DNA from: an uncultured Methanosarcinales archaeon
GTDB taxonomy: Archaea > Nanobdellota > Nanobdellia > Woesearchaeales > GW2011-AR15
Direction of reading: 5' to 3'
DNA: 64,000 nucleotides
NCBI GenBank assembly: GCA_964441565.1
Contig: CAYTWW010000002.1
Coordinates: forward strand, 88,032-152,031
The position numbers and the translations under genes were made by a program. The notes under the pieces are model-generated. The model was not told the DNA's origin. It saw nothing but the letters and a program-made list of their open reading frames with translations, and searched no databases. Of this stretch, positions 5,251 through 40,086 are shown piece by piece. The stretch's first letter is position 1, and every line of letters begins with the position of its first letter.

Positions 5251-5695
5251 TTTTGATTAGCCCCTGTTCTGTCAGATAAAGCTTGATATGCCTCTTGCTC
5301 CTGAAGAATCCTCCTTTGGATTTCAGGTAAAGCTCTCTGTAGAGCTCGTTTGTTATGACATTCTTATCCTTGAGGGTCTTGAGATAGCTTCTCTGGAGCC
5401 TGATCCTGTTCATCCAGGTTGTCTTCGTGTCCTCCCTGGCGCCAGCCCTTCCTTTCCTGGAACCCTGGCCTCTCCTGAGACCCTTCTTCTTCTGGTCGTG
5501 CGCCTTCCTGACCCTTCCCCTTGAGATCCCTCTCTTCGGGACGATCTGGATGACACCCTCCTGGATGAGGGACTTGATGTCATTTTTTGTGATTGCCTTC
5601 TTGATATCGTCGAGCCTCATGGTGTCGAATTTGACCCTTTTAGAGGACCCCTTGACGATGTCTGCTACAAGCCTTTTCTGAACGTCGAGATTCAT
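5243..5695 (-). CDS. rpl19e: 50S ribosomal protein eL19 (L19e)
   Basis: 150 aa, MNLDVQKRLVADI...KKAHDQKKKGLRRGQGSRKG typical of L19e. Confidence 0.9.
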   Translation of the reverse strand: MNLDVQKRLVADIVKGSSKRVKFDTMRLDDIKKAITKNDIKSLIQEGVIQIVPKRGISRGRVRKAHDQKKKGLRRGQGSRKGRAGAREDTKTTWMNRIRLQRSYLKTLKDKNVITNELYRELYLKSKGGFFRSKRHIKLYLTEQGLIKNE

Positions 5696-5705
5696 TTATA
5701 TCACG

Positions 5706-6278
5706 TCAAAATTTTTTGGTGAGCAGCCTGTCGATCTCCTGCTTCTCAAGCTTCTTCTTCTCCTCATCGGAGAGCTTGTCCTCGATCGACTCCTTCTCTT
5801 CTTTCTTTGTCTCTTTCTTCTTCTCCTCTACCTTCTGCTCCTTGACTTCCTTCTTCTTCTGGAGCTTCTGCTTCTTCTCAGCAGCATAGGCCTGAGGATC
5901 CTTGATGTTGAGGATTGTGAGCTTCATCTCGACTGCCTTGGTCATGATCTCAAGCTTCTTCTTTGTTCCGAGCTTGGCTGAGATTATGATACCCTGCTCT
6001 TTGGGCTTTACAGACCCTAGCTGGTCGAGCTTGGAGACGAGGACTATCTCAAGTCCGCTCCTGTCGAGTCCCTTGACCTCGCTTGGTGAGCCGTATCCTG
6101 GAGAGACCATCTTCTTGTGCCCGGACCCTTTCATCAGCTTTGAATGGTATCCATGAGGCTTCCTCCATCTGATGCTCCCCTGGAGTCTCTTGAGCTTGGT
6201 TGTGCCTTGCCTCACGAACTTGGGCTTCCTCGACTTGATGCTCTTCCTGAGTGAGAGTAGTTCCTTTTTCATTGTCAT
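5706..6278 (-). CDS. rpl32e: 50S ribosomal protein eL32 (L32e) with a Lys/Glu-rich C-terminal tail
   Basis: 190 aa. The L32e core is present (KPKFVRQGTTKLKRLQGSIRWRKPHGYHSKLMKGSGHKKMVSPGYGSP), followed by a roughly 70-aa KE-rich low-complexity tail. Confidence 0.85.
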   Translation of the reverse strand: MTMKKELLSLRKSIKSRKPKFVRQGTTKLKRLQGSIRWRKPHGYHSKLMKGSGHKKMVSPGYGSPSEVKGLDRSGLEIVLVSKLDQLGSVKPKEQGIIISAKLGTKKKLEIMTKAVEMKLTILNIKDPQAYAAEKKQKLQKKKEVKEQKVEEKKKETKKEEKESIEDKLSDEEKKKLEKQEIDRLLTKKF

Positions 6279-9036: not shown

Positions 9037-9438
9037 TCACACGATTATGCTTGCAGTCTTTGAGATTCCAGACCATCTCTCGCAAGCCTCTTTGGCTACT
9101 GCGCCCTTGAAGATGGTTCCCTTCGGGTTTCCCTTGTCATCCTTGAGGACGACAGCTGCATTGTCTTCGAACTTTATCCTGGTGCCGTTAGGCCTCCTGT
9201 ATTCCTTTCTCTGTCTTACGATGACAGCCCACACGACCTGCTTCATCATGTCTGGCTTGCCTTTCTTGACAGCAGCCTTTATCAGGTCCCCGACTCCGGC
9301 CGAGGGCTTCCTGCTCCTCATGCCCTTGTATCCGAGGACCGAGATGACCTCCAGTACCTTTGCTCCTGAGTTGTCGCATGTGGGGATATTGGCTCCCACG
9401 GGGAGCGACCTTGTCACACGTGATTTTAATTCTTTCAT
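9037..9438 (-). CDS. rpl14: 50S ribosomal protein uL14 (L14)
   Basis: 133 aa, highly conserved L14 sequence ([28 protein letters not shown]...). Confidence 0.95.
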
Positions 9439-9746
9439 TTTTCCAGCACTTTCACTACTGCGAATTTCTTAGTCTTGGAAAGCGGCCTGCATTCCTTTAT
9501 GACTACGATGTCTCCTTCCTTGGCGCTGATGCATGTTGGGTTGTGGGCCTTGACATTGGATTTCCTCTTCTCGTACCTTTCGTACTTCGGGACCTTCTTC
9601 CTTGTCTCCCACTCGACACTTACGGTCTTCTGCATCTTTGAGCTGACGATGGTTCCCTGGAATTCCCTTCCTCTCAGCTTCAGGGATCCATGGATAGGAC
9701 AGTACCTGTCATCGCACTTGTTCTGTTCTTCTGATTTTTTTGCCAT
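9435..9746 (-). CDS. rps17: 30S ribosomal protein uS17 (S17)
   Basis: Start re-chosen at MAKKSEEQ (ATG at 9746-9744), 5 nt downstream of the Rpp29 stop. The OB-fold S17 core is present ([24 protein letters not shown]). The longer version in the ORF track would overlap Rpp29. Confidence 0.85.
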
Positions 9747-9751
9747 TTGGA

Positions 9752-9979
9752 TCACTTTTTTATCCGGTCTTCCGGACGCTTCGCGATTGTCTCGCCATTC
9801 ACCTTGCAATCATGTATGAATATCGTCGCGTTCTTCTTGATTATCGTCTTCACCCCTTTCGGGGTGTTGATCATGAGCGTGTTCTTGGTCTCGTCGATGA
9901 TAGTGCCTTCGAATTTCCGGCCGCTATAAATTATTAGCGCTGGAAGTCCGATGAACTCCCTTCTCTCGAGCTTTTCCAT
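9752..9979 (-). CDS. rnp1: RNase P protein component 1 (Rpp29/Pop4-like)
   Basis: 75-aa Sm-like protein ([45 protein letters not shown]), located between L29/SUI1 and S17 as in many archaea. Confidence 0.75.
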
Positions 9980-11199: not shown

Positions 11200-11638
11200 T
11201 TTTAACCTTCTCCTGCTCGGCGAGCACGACCTCTACATGTGTCCTCTTCATCTTCCTTCTCCTGAGCCTTCCGAAATGCCAGGGGCTGGAGGCCTTGTGC
11301 GCGACCATATAGACGATGTAAAGATCGCTTCCGAGCCCTTTGGCTCGTGCATTTGATTCTGCGCTCTCGATGAGCGACATGATCATCTTTGCTGCAGTGA
11401 CAGGGTACCTTCCGGCAGCGATGCCTGGCTTGTGGCCTGTATCCCTGTTGAACCTCTTCATAGGCACTGCCTTCTTCTTGATGATGACCTGTGCGAGGAA
11501 TCTCTTGGCAGCGGCTGTGCTCTTGCCCCTGCATGCGCTGCATATCTCGACAGACTGCTTCATGGAGATGCTGAGGTTCTTGCCCACAGCGAAAGCCATG
11601 TTCTCCTTGAGGCCCTGATAGCTGAGAGTGTATTCCAT
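11192..11638 (-). CDS. rpl22: 50S ribosomal protein uL22 (L22)
   Basis: 148 aa, canonical position. Confidence 0.9.
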   Translation of the reverse strand: MEYTLSYQGLKENMAFAVGKNLSISMKQSVEICSACRGKSTAAAKRFLAQVIIKKKAVPMKRFNRDTGHKPGIAAGRYPVTAAKMIMSLIESAESNARAKGLGSDLYIVYMVAHKASSPWHFGRLRRRKMKRTHVEVVLAEQEKVKND

Positions 11639-11640
11639 CT

Positions 11641-12024
11641 TTACCTCACCGAGATCGCTGCGCTCGATTTTGTCGCGCCGATTCCTGGAGCGCTGTGGTT
11701 GACCCTTCTCCTTGTGAGCGAGAACTCTCCAAGGTAGTGGCCGACCATCTCTGCTGTGATCAGGATCGAGACATACTCCTTCCCATTGAAGACCTTGATC
11801 GTCTTGTCTACCATCTCTGGCACGACGACCATGTCCCTGCAGTGGGTCCTGAGGTTCTTGTCATTCTTCCTGATCTTCTCCATGACCTTCTTGTGCTCTT
11901 CAGATGTGCCCCTCTTCAGGGACCTTCTCTGCCTCGAGTTCATCAGCTTGGATACCTCAGGGATAGACATCTGCTGGATCTCGTCCAGCGTCTTTCCCCT
12001 GTAAAAAAATTCTTTCTTAGCCAT
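11641..12024 (-). CDS. rps19: 30S ribosomal protein uS19 (S19)
   Basis: 127 aa, [30 protein letters not shown]-terminal S19 signature. Confidence 0.9.
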
Positions 12025-34802: not shown

Positions 34803-35185
34803 CTTATCTCGATTGTCGCAGACGCTGCAGGATCCTTCAGATGCTCGACGATCCTCCTGTCTATGTCGCATGCTGCCTTCGTCGCCCTTGTCCCAAGAGT
34901 CCTGCTGCTCAGGAATGAGCTCCTCCGCAGGACTATCTCATGCTCATCATCAAAAGCATGGTTGACCTCTGCGGTGAAACTGTCTGAGATACCTTTTGCA
35001 AAGATGGTGACAGTGATGTGATCCTTATCTCTGATATGGTCAGACAGCTCTTTAAGGCCATAATCAGCCCTGATTCCTAGTATGCAGTCACCATTAAGGC
35101 TTAGAGCATCATCCTTGGTGAACTCGATTGTGTTCCTGTGCTCTGACCTTGTATTCTTGTGTCCGTGCACAGTGAACCTGATCAC
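34799..35185 (-). CDS. DUF371-like archaeal protein
   Basis: 128 aa. FTVHGHKNTRSEHRNTIEFTKDD matches the conserved N-terminal block I remember for DUF371. It is adjacent to the PUA gene, as is common for that family. Confidence 0.45.
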   Translation of the reverse strand: MIRFTVHGHKNTRSEHRNTIEFTKDDALSLNGDCILGIRADYGLKELSDHIRDKDHITVTIFAKGISDSFTAEVNHAFDDEHEIVLRRSSFLSSRTLGTRATKAACDIDRRIVEHLKDPAASATIEIR

Positions 35186-35409
35186 TTCTTATCTTCCCGC
35201 TTGACTATGTCTTCGATAGGCTTCTTCTCAGATGCTTCCTGTGCCATCTTCTGGAGGTCGATGCCCATGTCAGATAGAGACTTGACATGCATCTGCATCA
35301 GCTGCTCAACGATGTTGACCAGCTTCAAGAGCTCTTGCCTCTCTTTTGCCAGGGTTGACAAAGAACCTTTATGGAAACCTATCTGCTCTTCCTTGGAAAC
35401 ATTCTCCAT
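35182..35409 (-). CDS. Small helical hypothetical protein
   Basis: 75-aa coiled-coil-like ORF, overlapping gene ends (ATGA-type) with the next gene. Confidence 0.35.
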   Translation of the reverse strand: MENVSKEEQIGFHKGSLSTLAKERQELLKLVNIVEQLMQMHVKSLSDMGIDLQKMAQEASEKKPIEDIVKREDKK

Positions 35410-35540: not shown

Positions 35541-36176
35541 ATGGACCTGCTAGCGCTATCAATCAATATCAGGCAACTCTTCCTTGGAAGCGAGAGGAAT
35601 TTCTTTGGGCTTCCTGTTGACCAGAAACATAGGGGAAAGATAATATCCATCAATTCATACTACAGGAGATTCTCCCTGAAGCATGCTGGGGCACTCCCGA
35701 CAAAGACCCACGCCCAGTTCATTGTCTGGAAGACCAATCACAGGCTAAGGCTCGGCTTCCCTGTAGGCTGGTATATGTACGGACCCTTCTGTCCTATACC
35801 CTTCGGTTTCTCTTTCAGGGACAACCTGAATGATGAAGAGAAGAATGTCGTCGAGAAGGCTGCCATCGACCTGATGAGGTTTGGGACGCTGAAGCTTGAG
35901 AGGATCGCTTCTGTCTATCAGCCAATCCATGAGGCGCGGCTGGACATAGTGCATGGTAAGCGCAGAGATGCATTCGTCAATCTGAGAAGGCATGCTCCGC
36001 CAGAGACCAGGGATCTGATACGCCCTTGCGAAGGCGAGCAGTTCGCTTCATTATGGCGCTACATCTCGCTCGTGCGGCTCCGGGACTCCCTGAGGTTCTA
36101 CTATGGAAAGCGTATAGATCTTTACCTATGGAGACAGATCCTGAGAGCCAGGAGGATGGTTCAGCAGGCTGAATAG
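35541..36176 (+). CDS. Hypothetical protein
   Basis: 211 aa with no motif; 16-nt convergent overlap with the 671-aa gene. Confidence 0.4.
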   Translation: MDLLALSINIRQLFLGSERNFFGLPVDQKHRGKIISINSYYRRFSLKHAGALPTKTHAQFIVWKTNHRLRLGFPVGWYMYGPFCPIPFGFSFRDNLNDEEKNVVEKAAIDLMRFGTLKLERIASVYQPIHEARLDIVHGKRRDAFVNLRRHAPPETRDLIRPCEGEQFASLWRYISLVRLRDSLRFYYGKRIDLYLWRQILRARRMVQQAE

Positions 36177-38176
36177 TTCGTTCGGAGGAAATCGATTATT
36201 GAGCTTGAGCCCCTTCTTGTGAAATGAAGATATTTGATACCTCTCTTGTCGCATTCTGATTTCACTGGACCATAGCAGTCATGGTCGATATTTGGTGTGA
36301 TGAATATGATCAGATCCATTTGCCCTGCCTGCTGAGCATCTCTTCTGGGATTCTGCCGATGATAGACAGTTGTCGGGACAGGTATCGTCTTTTCGATGAT
36401 GTGAGCAGTCTCTGAAGAATAGTCGCCTCCATAGATATGGATATTTGAGAACCTTTCTAGATGCAGGCTATCAGTCAGGGTCTGAGCAGAAGCAAGGTCT
36501 GGATTCCTTGCTTGTGATTCAGGCAGTAGGCGAGCGCAAAGGCCAGCGTATATGTTTCCTTGAAGTTCAAGCCTACCCAGTCTCTGCCCGGATTCAAGAA
36601 GGCTTTGGTATGCTGCCCAGAGGCACACATCTGATAGGAGTATCTTGATCATTGAGCTTTGATTTTCTTGTAGATCATTCGACATGAGCAGGGCCTGTTG
36701 AAGCCCTTTATCGGCGATAGTCCAGAACCTGCCCTGCATTCCATCTGGAAGGCAGGAGAATCCCTGACTCACTGATCGAGCATCCTCGATTCCTAGAGAA
36801 GAGATATATGCATCGAATCTGCTCTGTCTCTGCTGTGATGCCACAGCTCTGGCTTTGCTGATCCTTCTCTCGAGTGTCTCCAGGTTTCCTGCTTTGAACC
36901 CAGGCTCAATATCTCCATCTATCTTATTCAATGCACTGCGGATCGTCTTGAGCCTGGTCTGGTTCGGTTGCTGAAGGGCAGTATCCAACAGCAAGGCAGC
37001 CTTGTTGACATACCCTGACCTGACCATGGTGAAATAATCCTTGAGCACCAATTCTGCCATGCTGTACCTTTCGGTCACATCAATGATCCTATCATGGCTG
37101 TCGGCTGAGAAAAGGATCTCGATGTTCTCAAGGAGGACTCCGGCTCCTTTCCATTGGTAAGGTTTTTCAAGTCCTAGGAGGAATTCTTCGAAGGTGCCAT
37201 TGCCAAAAGGCATCCTGAACCATGGCATCCCCCCGATCACAGCTCTTGATCCTGCCCCTGTGGTCTTTGCAAGCTTAAGGATGCCGGGATTTCTTGCCAG
37301 CTCATCAAGCAGGCAATCTCTGTTCTCAGGAGCTTCAGCCTTCAGGAGCCTGAGAGCTGTGCCTGGCTCATCTATCATAGCCAGCTTCTCAGCGACATAT
37401 CCTATGGGAGGTGATTCGCGTCTCCTGTCGAGGAGCTTGTATATCTCGATCCAGCTCTGCCTTGTGAGTACCTTGTATGATTCCTCCAAGTCCTGCATCA
37501 TCAGGACGATCGGGTCTAGCCTCTGTGCCTCGGAGAACAGACCGATTGTGACCTCTGTATCTGTCTTGTAGACTTCTCTTATGAGGATATTCCTCTCTCG
37601 CGTCGCCTCAATCAGATCTTCCAGATACAGGTTGGTGGCTACTGGCCCTGCTGCTTCGAATATCGAAGTAGCGATCCCCACCAGCTCTTCAAGATTTGAG
37701 ACCTTCTTATGGTAGTCTCCCATGGATTCATCGCAATACAGCTTGATCCTTGTCAGAGGATAGACATAAGGGACTTCATAGAAGTTGTGCTTCTGGGGTA
37801 TCTTGACATCCCCAGCCAACATCACTGCTTCCAATACCTTCTCGTCGCTTGGATTGATGCGTGCCACCTTCTGAGCAGTGCCAAGGCAGCTGAGGCCATA
37901 GTTCCAGTCCGCATAGTCTGCAAGTGTTGAAAGGAATTTGCGTGCTCTCTTGAGGAAATCCTGGGAAGCTCCTGTGATCAATGGCTCAAGATCCAGCTGA
38001 AGGCTGACAGCAGGAGATACCTGAGGCAGGGCTTTATCGAAAAGCCTTCTCGCATCCTCGAGAGCGATGTTATAGAGCCACGCCATTGCTGCTGAGACTA
38101 CAGCTCTCTTGTCCTCGTACTCCTCTCTATCCTTTTCAAGCTCCCTTTCAAGGCGTTCCTTTTTCTTTCTACTCAC
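36161..38176 (-). CDS. Large hypothetical protein (671 aa)
   Basis: Long ORF with good coding appearance and an N-terminal KE-rich coiled segment. No catalytic motif recognised. Its start lies 42 bp from the tRNA 3'-end duplicate. Confidence 0.55.
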   Translation of the reverse strand: MSRKKKERLERELEKDREEYEDKRAVVSAAMAWLYNIALEDARRLFDKALPQVSPAVSLQLDLEPLITGASQDFLKRARKFLSTLADYADWNYGLSCLGTAQKVARINPSDEKVLEAVMLAGDVKIPQKHNFYEVPYVYPLTRIKLYCDESMGDYHKKVSNLEELVGIATSIFEAAGPVATNLYLEDLIEATRERNILIREVYKTDTEVTIGLFSEAQRLDPIVLMMQDLEESYKVLTRQSWIEIYKLLDRRRESPPIGYVAEKLAMIDEPGTALRLLKAEAPENRDCLLDELARNPGILKLAKTTGAGSRAVIGGMPWFRMPFGNGTFEEFLLGLEKPYQWKGAGVLLENIEILFSADSHDRIIDVTERYSMAELVLKDYFTMVRSGYVNKAALLLDTALQQPNQTRLKTIRSALNKIDGDIEPGFKAGNLETLERRISKARAVASQQRQSRFDAYISSLGIEDARSVSQGFSCLPDGMQGRFWTIADKGLQQALLMSNDLQENQSSMIKILLSDVCLWAAYQSLLESGQRLGRLELQGNIYAGLCARLLPESQARNPDLASAQTLTDSLHLERFSNIHIYGGDYSSETAHIIEKTIPVPTTVYHRQNPRRDAQQAGQMDLIIFITPNIDHDCYGPVKSECDKRGIKYLHFTRRGSSSIIDFLRTNYSAC

Positions 38177-38217
38177 AAATCAAGGCGGACCAGGTAGCAA
38201 TATTTAAGGATTTTCAT

Positions 38218-38241
38218 GAAAAGAGTGAAGGGATAGGGATT
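38218..38241. repeat. Direct repeat: duplicate of the tRNA-Leu 3' end (gaaaagagtgaAgggatagggatt versus gaaaagagtgaGgggatagggatt at 38311-38334), att-site-like remnant
   Basis: 23 of 24 nt are identical to the 3' acceptor/T-arm end of the tRNA (minus strand) 93 bp away. A third partial T-arm-like fragment (gtgttcaaatcctgac) lies between them. Confidence 0.6.
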
Positions 38242-38318
38242 CCCAGGAACCGTAAGTTCATGGGCACACGAATGAAATGAGTGTGTGTTCAAATCCTGAC
38301 CCGAACGAATGAAAAGAG

Positions 38319-38458
38319 TGAGGGGATAGGGATTTGAACCCTAGTAGGCACTAAGCCAACAGATGACTTACATTGATCGTTCATCGCACTGCGATTTCGC
38401 AGCTCTCACCACTCAAATGCCTTGAGTCTGTCCCGTTTGGCCGCTCCGGCATCCCCTC
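38319..38458 (-). tRNA. tRNA-Leu (anticodon CAA) with a 56-nt intron at the canonical 37/38 position; CCA not encoded
   Basis: The minus-strand sequence has an acceptor stem GAGGGGA/TCCCCTC with discriminator A, then U8, a D-arm (CCGG..GG..), anticodon stem ACAGA/TCTGT and loop CUCAAG|A, a 15-nt variable arm (TGGCTTAGTGCCTAC), and a T-arm TAGGG-TTCAAAT-CCCTA. The intron, GCATTTGAGT..., pairs with the anticodon (ACTCAA/TTGAGT). The mature length is 84 nt. Confidence 0.7.
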
Positions 38459-38492
38459 GTGAGGTAGAAGAACTCCGGTTGATTTATAAAGA

Positions 38493-38864
38493 TTATGAGA
38501 GCCTGCCGATCTCCTGCTCTACATCCCTGAGCTGCTGCTCAAGCTTCTCTAACTCGGTCATCTCCTTTATCGTCCCCCTCACCTTCATCTTGGTCTTGGG
38601 AGCATCGACGACCTTTGCCCTGAGATGTGTCTTTGGCAGAGTCGACCTCAGCTTTGTGAATAACAGGTCAAGCTCTCTGACAACAGTCTTGAGCTGCTGA
38701 GTTCGCTTCATCTTCTCAGCCCTTGTCTGCTCAAGCTTGGCATACAGTTGGAGGATCTGGATCATCTCTCTCGAGCATTCAAGTGTGTTCCTCCTGACAT
38801 CCAGCGGATTCTGCACACCTACGAAGAATCCTTCCCTGCTATCTTCGGTCTTTGGCATCTTCAC
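38493..38864 (-). CDS. Coiled-coil hypothetical protein
   Basis: 123 aa, helical, ELEKLEQQLRDVEQEIGRLS C-terminus. Confidence 0.4.
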   Translation of the reverse strand: MKMPKTEDSREGFFVGVQNPLDVRRNTLECSREMIQILQLYAKLEQTRAEKMKRTQQLKTVVRELDLLFTKLRSTLPKTHLRAKVVDAPKTKMKVRGTIKEMTELEKLEQQLRDVEQEIGRLS

Positions 38865-39088
38865 AGTTTGGGTTCGAAGAGAGTCTGGTCGATGAAAGTC
38901 AGCTTCCTCTCGACATCCTCAAGTCCATTGCGCCACAGTTCAAGCTCAGAATCCTCCTGGTTCTTCAGATCATTGATCTTGCCCAGGATTGTCTTAGCTT
39001 CCTTGACCTTCTCCTGTATGAGCTCCATGATGTCGAGTATGTCCTTATACTCATCGATCTTGACGAATACGTTCATGCCTTGTTGCAT
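38861..39088 (-). CDS. Small helical protein, paralog of the C-terminal domain of the next gene
   Basis: 75 aa. It shares VFVKIDEYKDILD... and the C-terminal DVERKLTFIDQTLFE with 39093-39914 (LFVRTDLYRQALNNFIDIKDM ... EIQRKLIFIDKTLFEG). Confidence 0.45.
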   Translation of the reverse strand: MQQGMNVFVKIDEYKDILDIMELIQEKVKEAKTILGKINDLKNQEDSELELWRNGLEDVERKLTFIDQTLFEPKL

Positions 39089-39092
39089 ATGA

Positions 39093-39914
39093 TCACCCTT
39101 CGAATAGAGTCTTGTCTATGAAGATCAGCTTCCTCTGGATCTCCTCGATAGCTTTCTTGAACTCAGAGAATTCTACATCTGCGTTCTTCTTCAGGTTCTC
39201 GAGCCGGAATACTGTCTCTTCAGATTCTGTGAGCATGTCTTTTATGTCTATGAAGTTGTTGAGCGCCTGCCTGTAGAGGTCTGTCCTCACAAAGAGTGGC
39301 TTCTGGAGCTTCCTGTGCCTGTCATGCGAATACGGCTGCTCGATATCGCTGATCTTAGGGTGCCTGTAGAGATATTTCTCCTCAAGCTTCTCAAGCTCCA
39401 GCGGTGATATCTCGCTTCTCAGGTTTGGCGGAGGAGCAGGAACCTCGATCTCCGGTCTTGGCTGGCTCTTTGGTGTTCCCTGGACCCCCATCGTGAAAGC
39501 AGGCAGCTCATTCTTCTGCTCTGAGAAAGTTGGCAGCTGTTGCTTAGGAGGAGGTGTCAGAGGCTCCATAGTGAATCTTGGTTTAATATCGCTTTGGACA
39601 GGCCGCGCAGGAATTTCTGCTCCAGGAAGCTCAGGCCTTTGTGGAGGGGAAGGAGGGATCTTCGGGACGCTCATCGGTTGAGTCACTGCCTGCACTGGCT
39701 GCAAACCAGGTGTGGTCGGCACAGCCTGTTGCATAGGTGCCAAAGGCTGCATAGGCGGCATCGGTTGCATCGGCGGAACCGGAAGTGGCGGATCCATCGG
39801 CTTGAACTCAGGAAAATCTATAGGAGGGGGAGCTGGCAGACCTTCGGAAGGCTTAGGAGGTGAATCTGAGAAATCCAGAGTTTTTTTCTTTTGCTTGAAT
39901 TCAAACAGACCCAT
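39093..39914 (-). CDS. Proline-rich low-complexity protein with conserved C-terminal helical domain (paralog of 38861-39088)
   Basis: Start re-chosen at MGLFEFKQKKK. About 170 aa of P/Q/M-rich repeats (PMQPMPPMQPLAPMQ) precede a C-terminal domain shared with the upstream 75-aa protein. Confidence 0.5.
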   Translation of the reverse strand: MGLFEFKQKKKTLDFSDSPPKPSEGLPAPPPIDFPEFKPMDPPLPVPPMQPMPPMQPLAPMQQAVPTTPGLQPVQAVTQPMSVPKIPPSPPQRPELPGAEIPARPVQSDIKPRFTMEPLTPPPKQQLPTFSEQKNELPAFTMGVQGTPKSQPRPEIEVPAPPPNLRSEISPLELEKLEEKYLYRHPKISDIEQPYSHDRHRKLQKPLFVRTDLYRQALNNFIDIKDMLTESEETVFRLENLKKNADVEFSEFKKAIEEIQRKLIFIDKTLFEG

Positions 39915-40086
39915 ATTATTGAAGCATATATTCCAGGGCCATTTTAAACTTTTTGCGTAACTCTTCAGAAGTAAATAATCCACTTTTCCTCTCCAAGAAT
40001 AAGGCAACAAGGCAGGATGGATTTCAATACTTGCGGATGAATAAAAAATAATATATAATAAGGCCTAATAGAGCAAAAATTTATCC

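Follow-up and report, generated by a model that had tools for sequence, protein, structure and literature searches.

How the 3' end of one transfer RNA (tRNA) gene came to be present twice, 93 base pairs (bp) apart, is the question raised by a locus in the 64-kb stretch of contig CAYTWW010000002.1 analysed here (the window). The gene encodes tRNA-Leu(CAA), and a nearly identical copy of its 3' end lies a short distance downstream. A Woesearchaeota-type (DPANN) archaeon has here a functional tRNA-Leu(CAA) gene that contains an intron and carries, in its 3' flank, what is most likely a small product of DNA-level recombination. For the origin of this product we tentatively favor, at somewhat less than even confidence, an attachment (att)-type duplication at a hot spot, created by a site-specific recombination event within the T loop; it would have left almost no element DNA and made the second copy an inert pseudo-3' end. 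The gene, its intron and the two repeat copies, both located by pattern scan, repeat finder and local alignment, are as follows (nt, nucleotides).

38458 to 38319, minus strand: tRNA-Leu(CAA) gene (ARAGORN with introns allowed; gene ends read by hand)
38458 to 38421, 38420 to 38365 and 38364 to 38319, minus strand: its 5' exon, 56-nt intron (at 37/38) and 3' exon
38309 to 38334, minus strand: repeat copy 1, AATCCCTATCCCCTCA (tRNA positions 58-73) followed by the trailer CTCTTTTCAT
38216 to 38241, minus strand: repeat copy 2, AATCCCTATCCCTTCACTCTTTTCAT, 25/26 identical to copy 1

With introns allowed, ARAGORN identified tRNA-Leu(CAA) at c[38318,38458] with a full cloverleaf and a 56-nt intron after position 37. 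This cloverleaf has a 7-bp acceptor stem (GAGGGGA/TCCCCTC), a D stem of 3 bp, the anticodon stem ACAGA/TCTGT and the T arm TAGGG-TTCAAAT-CCCTA. The gene also has a long (type II) variable arm, TGGCTTAGTGCCTAC, and its discriminator A73 is followed by CTC, so that CCA is not encoded. The 7-bp acceptor stem, type II arm, CAA anticodon and A73 are those of an archaeal tRNA-Leu, and orthologues are present at six related loci in metagenome-assembled genomes (MAGs). No tRNA was reported in the whole window by ARAGORN with default settings, nor by Rfam at gathering thresholds; this silence is caused by the intron and reflects a limitation of the tools, not evidence against the gene. When read by hand, the splicing motif is close to the canonical bulge-helix-bulge, with the outer helix ACAGA/TCTGT, two 3-nt bulges (AG|G and UC|A), a 4-bp central helix between them (CUCA/UAAG, with one mismatch, C34.A) and the inner helix CAUU/AAUG. 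In an alternative pairing, UUGAG of the intron can base-pair with CUCAA of the anticodon loop. Intron-mode prediction and hand reading thus recovered what the initial annotation had described (the CAA anticodon, the length and position of the intron, the type II arm, the missing CCA and the intron-anticodon pairing), including in the tRNA-predictor check that it had proposed.

The direct repeat is 26 nt long and consists of 16 bases of the tRNA (positions 58-73) and 10 nt of trailer. Its two copies share 96% identity according to the repeat finder, with a start-to-start spacing of 93; 77 nt separate the tRNA end from copy 2, and only 67 nt lie between the copies. Both match the 3' part of the tRNA, and one of them completes the gene. 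The pattern AATCCCTATCCCYTCACTCTTTTCAT occurs twice in the window, where 100 shuffles predicted 0.00 occurrences, and the local alignment of the pair gave z = 18. The sole difference between the copies is C70 to U, and copy 2, if used as the acceptor strand, would give G3.U70 in place of G3-C70. A 24-nt duplicate (23/24 identical) lying 69 bp beyond the gene had been reported initially; the duplication itself is real, with the length and the gap corrected to 26 nt (25/26) and 77 nt. The locus is identical base for base in five independent Joint Genome Institute (JGI) metagenome contigs and one NCBI MAG contig, and therefore it is neither an assembly artefact nor polymorphic in these samples. 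A coincidental match within the coding sequence of the open reading frame (ORF) at 38086-38280 does not explain the duplicate either, since this ORF is not a called gene in the JGI records and overlaps the start of a gene for a 671-amino-acid (aa) protein on the other strand.

Related loci were collected from MAGs by a species-representative scan with a 22-mer from the tRNA 3' end, which gave three, and by a search through neighboring proteins, which gave more. The repeat was then compared at eight tRNA-Leu loci (the window, L017-L021, L023 and L026), with 300 shuffles for each. A significant downstream copy of the 3' end was found at three of the eight (the window, L020 and L017), in each case beating 300/300 shuffles. 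The repeat is 26 nt long at a downstream distance of 77 in the window, 17-25 nt at 95 in L020, which is the closest relative, and 30 nt at 143 in L017; all three copies start at A58/A59 in the T loop, and the spacers of the three loci are 67-128 nt long. The related genomes L019, L021, L023 and L026 have the orthologous tRNA and the upstream synteny without a second copy, that is, an unoccupied site, and the presence of the repeat among lineages is therefore patchy. A candidate second copy in L018 (13/16) was not significant (54/300 shuffles), and may be a weak hint that the module is old. L017 has a different gene neighborhood, and its tRNA has the anticodon UAG (by reading) and the same 3' exon. 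Recurrence of the copy, including in this other neighborhood, suggests that this particular 3' sequence is targeted.

Upstream of the tRNA, the gene order ScpB, MJ0538-family, ~700-aa, ~300-aa, 75-aa, ~120-aa, tRNA-Leu is fully or partially kept in L018-L021, L023 and L026. Gene content shifts exactly at the tRNA 3' end, and the flank just 3' of the gene differs in every relative. Compared with the window, the tRNA of L020 has two compensatory acceptor pairs (6:67 and 7:66), and copy 2 of L020 carries the L020 version, with 16/16 identity over the tRNA part. Elsewhere in the intergenic DNA of the two genomes no recognizable similarity is left. For the copies to be alike within each genome, they must therefore have arisen recently in each lineage, or have been kept alike by gene conversion or by selection.

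The spacer between the copies contains no ORF, and its ends are not inverted repeats of each other. Three features were recognized in it.

38287 to 38296, minus strand: inverted T-loop piece GGATTTGAAC, comprising the T loop and flanks (repeat finder; 14 nt long in L020)
38265 to 38285, minus strand: hairpin beta, CACAC-TCATTTCATTC-GTGTG, with a loop overlapping the third copy of the trailer motif (38268-38283)
38242 to 38264, minus strand: hairpin gamma, CCCAuGAAC-UUAC-GGUUCcUGGG, directly 5' of copy 2 (folding)

On the plus strand, GTTCAAATCC (38287-38296) is a perfect 10-nt inverted complement of G53-C62 of the tRNA itself, which bears out the T-arm-like fragment noticed earlier between the copies. 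Together with four further pairs, this piece can sequester copy 1. The 16-nt repeat CACTCwTTTCATTCGT, present at 38268-38283 and 38305-38320, provides a further copy (the third overall) of the motif at the end of the gene and the trailer. Hairpin beta has a counterpart in L020, TGCGT-TCACTTCGTTC-ACGCA, in which four of the five stem pairs are changed on both sides and the 11-nt loop is conserved at 9/11 positions. In hairpin gamma the 5' half of the T loop occurs both inverted (TGAAC) and in direct orientation (GGTTC), and the terminal UGGG of this hairpin has the potential to base-pair with U54-A57; the shape of the hairpin, not its sequence, is kept in L020, and L017 has a marginal sequence counterpart. 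The window and L020 spacers have in common a 32-nt block that includes the inverted T-loop piece and the hairpin (GGTCAGGATTTGAACACACACTCATTTCATTC in the window, GGTAGGGATTTGAACATGCGTTCACTTCGTTC in L020), with 24/32 identical positions, a level reached in 1/500 shuffles.

The 5' half of the T loop in either orientation (GTTCA/TGAAC) occurs twice in the window spacer (P = 0.008) and three times in that of L020 (P = 0.0008). This enrichment and the triplicated trailer motif point to probable repeated breakage and joining at A57|A58, which could be the work of a site-specific recombinase or of template switching at the T-arm palindrome. The L017 spacer is devoid of GTTCA/TGAAC pieces and has a long hairpin centered on UUUAC; it shares GTGCCCA..TTAC..TGGG with the window at a marginal level (34/500 shuffles). 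The conserved and structured spacer, the inverted T loop and the acceptor-tracking copy 2 suggest that the module is kept for a purpose or regenerated by a site-specific process.

Other identities of the spacer were considered and discarded. The plus-strand fragment is not the 3' end of another tRNA, since beyond the T loop the sequences CCTGACCCGAAC (window) and CCCTACCAATCA (L020) provide no T stem; the better interpretation is that the T loop of this same tRNA was copied here in inverted orientation. Attempts to build a cloverleaf or a T arm, whether for a second tRNA, the 3' half of a split tRNA or a permuted tRNA, failed for the spacer as well as for the opposite strand. Rfam families gave only noise in the region 38100-38600 at E values up to 10.

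The favored att-type duplication would start with a crossover at a specific site, around A57|A58 of the T loop. The 3' end of the tRNA would be replaced by an identical one brought in from outside (copy 1 with its trailer), and the old end would move 93 bp downstream to become copy 2, an outcome matching the formation of attL and attR by T-loop-targeting integrases. The incoming DNA would be almost wholly gone, or would never have been large, leaving the 67-nt spacer as a patchwork of direct and inverted pieces of T arm and trailer. Copy 2 would persist as a pseudo-3' end just upstream of the promoter of the next gene, and the mature tRNA would come from copy 1, with the 37/38 intron spliced out in the usual way. 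We infer a recombinase origin of the duplication, a copy 2 without function, and copy identity through gene conversion or recent origin. A duplicated tRNA 3' end beginning in the T loop is a known signature of elements integrating at this site, much as the initial annotation had stated for duplicated tRNA 3' ends in general, and the T-loop start, the patchy presence and the position exactly at the gene-order break are what T-loop-targeting integrative elements leave (PMC1762012, PMC3146451, PMC9897764).

Class II tyrosine integrases cross over in the T loop, and mycobacteriophage Ms6 has a 26-base attP core over a tRNA 3' end (PMC1762012), and the ssrA islands of Dehalococcoides use a serine integrase with a T-loop/3'-end target (PMC3146451); the targets of such elements are tRNA or tmRNA genes. 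Like these att sites, the present locus has a direct repeat of the 3' end of an RNA gene that starts in the T loop and may extend into the trailer, and a flank that is hypervariable between strains; the 26-nt repeat is close to the Ms6 core in length. Also counted among the likenesses are two Dehalococcoides features, a conserved motif just upstream of each repeat and gene-less cis-mobilizable units. In contrast to both systems, only 67-128 nt lie between the repeats without an integrase or cargo, no free element or attP was found, the spacer contains an inverted T-loop copy and conserved hairpins, and in two diverged genomes the displaced copy has kept its identity with the live gene. Partial tRNA genes that result from the integration of viruses and plasmids are pervasive in archaea, for example in Thermococcaceae, where PYG1 of Pyrococcus yayanosii has 44-bp repeats (PMC9897764). 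They are similar in having a single-base difference between the copies; however, those pairs are 9-23 kb of element DNA apart, not 93 bp, and usually comprise ~40-50 nt from the anticodon or variable region, whereas clear identity begins here at A58.

Partial tRNA genes also arise from integration in the SSV-type 'gene capture' of Sulfolobus. Casposons insert at the 3' ends of tRNA genes, including tRNA-Leu in Methanosarcina, with direct target repeats, which is the likeness to this locus. Their duplications are constant in length, at ~14-15 bp, and enclose terminal inverted repeats together with a Cas1 gene, whereas here the repeats are 17-30 nt long, no terminal inverted repeats bound the spacer and Cas1 is absent. 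The footprint of a casposon or another transposon was rejected on the variable repeat lengths (26, 17-25 and 30 nt) and on spacer ends that are not inverted repeats.

Several observations weigh against an att-type duplication. Scans of neighboring proteins with Pfam, NCBIfam and PHROGs revealed neither an integrase nor a serine recombinase, nor any other gene typical of mobile elements, among the larger ORFs covered at 15-42 kb or beside the repeat. No element DNA with an integrase or recombinase lies between the copies, which are separated by 67 nt in the window, or next to them, and the 67-128 nt at the three loci are too little for an element. No attP match to the core or the conserved spacer block was found in IMG/VR viral contigs. 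Identity between the copies covers only part of the 7-nt T loop, all of which an overlap region in this loop would have to comprise. Decay would be expected of an old passive scar; copy 2, however, is undecayed (25/26 in the window, 16/16 over the tRNA part in L020) and follows the acceptor changes of L020, and the spacer hairpin shows compensatory changes between the window and L020. The scar of past integration and excision proposed in the initial annotation is thus upheld in its signature and in the empty sites of four relatives, and is opposed by the missing integrase, the conserved and structured spacer, and the tracking of the acceptor stem by copy 2. Precise excision leaves no scar, and therefore integration followed by excision does not by itself produce the repeat pair.

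A potential source of the missing integrase was seen in L020, where a gene for a 284-aa tyrosine recombinase (9074-9928) ends 20 nt past copy 2. This protein narrowly passes the NCBIfam threshold for archaeal XerA (224 bits, with the cut-off at 220), and its homologues with 50-59% identity in Woesearchaeota and Nanoarchaeota number in the thousands. Two of these, on long contigs (L027 and L030), lie in a conserved XerA-PIN-NUDIX-RpoE-Spt4-S24e context with no tRNA nearby, and tblastn revealed no homologue in the window. The recombinase was rejected as the missing integrase because it is XerA-like, its homologues have a housekeeping context and the window has no counterpart, which adds to the points against the att-type origin. 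From its sequence, it looks like the host XerA, a chromosome-resolution enzyme. Since the XerA gene is beside tRNA-Leu in L020 and elsewhere in L027 and L030, either the gene has moved or the flank has been rearranged in L020.

Searches for further copies covered the window, metagenomes and viral sequences. The proposed search for a distal att partner returned only the two known copies in the 64 kb, with no third copy found using the 26-mer with up to three mismatches or by word-7 blastn of the tRNA 3' half and spacer, and nothing resembling attP in IMG/VR. A metagenome scan gave 11 single matches, none of which was in a Leu-like tRNA context, as expected by chance; the collection lacks the source organism, so this is a weak negative. 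The viral contig L034 (IMGVR_UViG_3300029288_001146) contains at 5326-5345 the intergenic 20-nt sequence TTCAAATCCCTATTCCCTCA, which corresponds to a Leu-like tRNA from the T loop to the discriminator. This 12-kb contig encodes a terminase with an intein, an RNA ligase and a helicase fragment, and has no full tRNA and no integrase. The match, to a looser tRNA-end pattern, may be chance or an attP; it was not counted, since by a rough estimate about one such match is expected by chance. A blastn search of phage genomes with the module produced only generic T-arm matches in bacterial phages.

The structured spacer was also analyzed at the RNA level. Read-through RNAs of the window and L020 are predicted to fold into the same four-way structure (z = -3.2 and -3.65), in which the 5' strand of the T stem pairs with CCUA of copy 2, the inverted piece sequesters the T loop and acceptor strand of copy 1, and two hairpins follow. 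RNAalifold analysis of the two sequences kept helices P1 and P2 and a hairpin with 4/5 compensatory pairs. All splice registers inside the repeat were checked for bulge-helix-bulge geometry, and only 59/60 permits the T stem to serve as the outer helix (5 bp). The 59/60 central helix is formed by 4/4 pairs in the window (UUCA/UGGG, two G.U), by 4/4 Watson-Crick pairs in L017 (UUCA/UGAA) and by 1/4 in L020, and no inner helix was found in the window, L017 or L020. This 4-bp central helix competes for the same T-loop bases with the much stronger 10-15-bp sequestering helix P2. A simple exhaustive scan for splicing motifs was unreliable on genes with nested introns and was not used.

A local duplication without any mobile element would account for many of the same features. 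Replication or repair would stall at the highly transcribed, hairpin-forming T arm and proceed through serial template switches (direct, inverted, direct), with short-patch gene conversion keeping the copies alike. The layout of copy 1, inverted G53-C62 and copy 2 has this direct-inverted-direct order, the spacer is pieced together from fragments of the T arm in either orientation and also holds the trailer motif for the third time, the breakpoint is at the tip of the T-arm palindrome, and the scanned ORFs include no recombinase or element genes. Such switching, however, must have taken place separately in no fewer than two or three lineages, each time with an identical boundary and once at the different tRNA-Leu of L017, which has no inverted spacer piece, and it explains neither the change in gene content exactly at this tRNA in all relatives nor the compensatory hairpin changes; we consider it an unlikely origin. 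The module might instead act in RNA, with transcription reading through the weak T4 tract past copy 1 and the 93 nt forming either a non-canonical T-loop intron (59/60) or a structured 3' extension that controls maturation. Consistent with this, the fold common to the window and L020 has the inverted fragment sequestering copy 1 and the 5' strands of the T stem and acceptor pairing with copy 2, which tracks each genome's own acceptor stem with a tolerated G.U as the window difference. The 59/60 central helix forms in the window and perfectly in L017, and orthologues with up to three introns make a broad-specificity splicing endonuclease plausible in this lineage, in view of the endonuclease types summarized in PMC5829648. 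However, the splicing motif fails in L020 (1/4 pairs) and lacks the inner helix in every genome, P2 and the central helix are mutually exclusive, copy 1 already completes the tRNA and makes a second copy needless, and the module is missing from four related genomes. The covariation comes from two sequences only and no Rfam family matches, and we regard a role in RNA as quite unlikely. A combination of both ideas, in which the 93-nt unit is a young T-loop intron or alternative 3' exon born of an att-type duplication, with a relaxed 59/60 bulge-helix-bulge cut by a broad-specificity endonuclease, appears improbable.

Non-canonical bulge-helix-bulge introns and split or permuted tRNA genes occur in Thermoproteales, Nanoarchaeum and ARMAN-type archaea. 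The present locus resembles them in the multi-intron tRNA-Leu genes of its lineage, in the 59/60 outer helix and 4-bp central helix of the window and L017, and in that removal of the insertion would restore a normal T loop. It differs in an incomplete motif without an inner helix that does not extend to L020, and in a putative intron beginning with a complete and usable copy of the 3' exon; we know of no tRNA intron described with such a start.

The initial annotation had also seen the repeat as the proximal edge of a large integrated island at 15-38 kb with its other border elsewhere, a scenario that the synteny contradicts and that we find highly improbable. In its favor, several genes at 28-38 kb have no Pfam match and the 671-aa protein has only remote homologues. 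Against it, the 15-38 kb block encodes topoisomerase I, HerA, PfkB, PUA and DUF371 proteins (and a weak NurA match), the L3-to-SecY ribosomal protein operon lies just beyond it at 1.6-14.8 kb, and no third repeat copy is present in the window, which also contains the ScpB gene. The guanine-plus-cytosine content shows no shift, being flat at ~49% across the window. In L021, synteny returns 1.6 kb past the tRNA with homologues of the 75/83-aa, DUF371, PUA and methyltransferase-PUA genes in the same order as at ~32.3-35.5 kb of the window. The truly variable segment is therefore only ~35.46-38.3 kb (~2.9 kb), and the supposed accessory region is mostly core syntenic DNA. Returning to the locus itself, this segment and the boxes beside the tRNA and copy 2 are placed as follows.

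35541 to 38176, both strands: variable segment with the 671-aa gene (36161-38176, minus) and a 211-aa gene (35541-36176, plus); relatives carry different genes
38200 to 38207, minus strand: TTAAATAT box, preceded by GAAAAT, abutting copy 2 and ~25-30 nt ahead of the GTG start of the next gene (read from sequence)
38481 to 38489, minus strand: TTTATAAAT box, ~25 nt upstream of the tRNA start (read from sequence)

The TTAAATAT box is likely to be the promoter of the 671-aa gene, and the TTTATAAAT box is likely the archaeal TATA element of the tRNA gene. Beyond the variable segment, conserved synteny restarts at a 75-aa gene (35182-35409). At a close level the 671-aa protein (36161-38176) finds only itself, with 28 remote homologues of ~700 aa (24-27% identity), and it has no mobile-element hallmark. 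The protein and these homologues have a common C-terminal DUF2325-like domain, and it therefore represents a fast-evolving family of unknown function. On the other side of the tRNA, the 123-aa protein encoded just upstream has homologues in Woesearchaeota MAGs (58-71% identity). The 75-aa protein encoded at 38861-39088 is highly conserved (83-92% identity in relatives) and is a paralogue of the C-terminal portion of its proline-rich 305-aa neighbor (39093-40010). With the gene for the ~120-aa protein, the genes for these two proteins make up a three-gene cluster immediately upstream of the tRNA, which is conserved but of unknown function. L032, a Logan contig of 1.5 kb that carries the syntenic genes for 75 and 116 aa, breaks off at 1469, precisely within the T arm of tRNA-Leu (…CTACTAGGGTTC); this end could be an assembly break caused by a repeat or by polymorphism at the same spot.

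Orthologous tRNA-Leu(CAA) genes in related Woesearchaeota MAGs have one to three introns (L018 ~6065-6236, minus strand; L020 8718-8939; L023 3453-3634; L026 8395-8589; L032 1293-1469). Aligned to the window gene, these are located in the D loop, at ~30/31 and at 37/38, with only the 37/38 intron in the window and L021. The D-loop insertions are bordered by short direct exon repeats (GGCCAAA or GGCCAAAC), an echo of the T-loop repeat. The C34.A mismatch in the 37/38 central helix (CUCA/UAAG; window 38365-38370 with C34 at 38424) is common to the window and L021 (8205-8345), and L018, L020, L023 and L026 have the perfect helix CUCA/UGAG. The 37/38 intron (38365-38420 in the window, and also in L018, L019, L020, L023 and L026) has a conserved 5' motif UUGAGUGAUGAGG, which is GUGGUGAG in the window, an internal CGAUGA and, in most relatives, a 3' UGAGCC. 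These motifs resemble box C/C' or K-turn elements, which in an archaeal tRNA-Trp intron guide methylation; they had no Rfam match in the window. At low threshold, ARAGORN also called a tRNA-Pro and a tRNA-Gly (11549-11999 and 36463-37922, with 369- and 1368-nt introns), which lie inside coding regions and look spurious.

Partial tRNA genes are known in general as footprints of integration, but we did not find the particular form of this locus described, with a spacing of 93 bp, an inverted T-loop piece, conserved hairpins and a displaced end that changes in concert with the gene. If it is a plain recombination scar, its value is practical: intron-blind tRNA finders miss such a gene, tRNA-Leu(CAA) is marked as a hot spot of rearrangement in a little-known DPANN lineage, and a supposed 23-kb island is corrected to a variable flank of ~2.9 kb. 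Since the copies differ at C70/U70, tRNA sequencing offers a direct test of the question at the RNA level. The origin of disrupted tRNA genes, such as those with T-loop introns and split tRNAs, and whether mobile-element integration drives it, is a long-standing question. If the reading as a T-loop intron were true, this locus would be a snapshot of mobile-element traffic generating non-canonical introns and, eventually, split tRNA genes.

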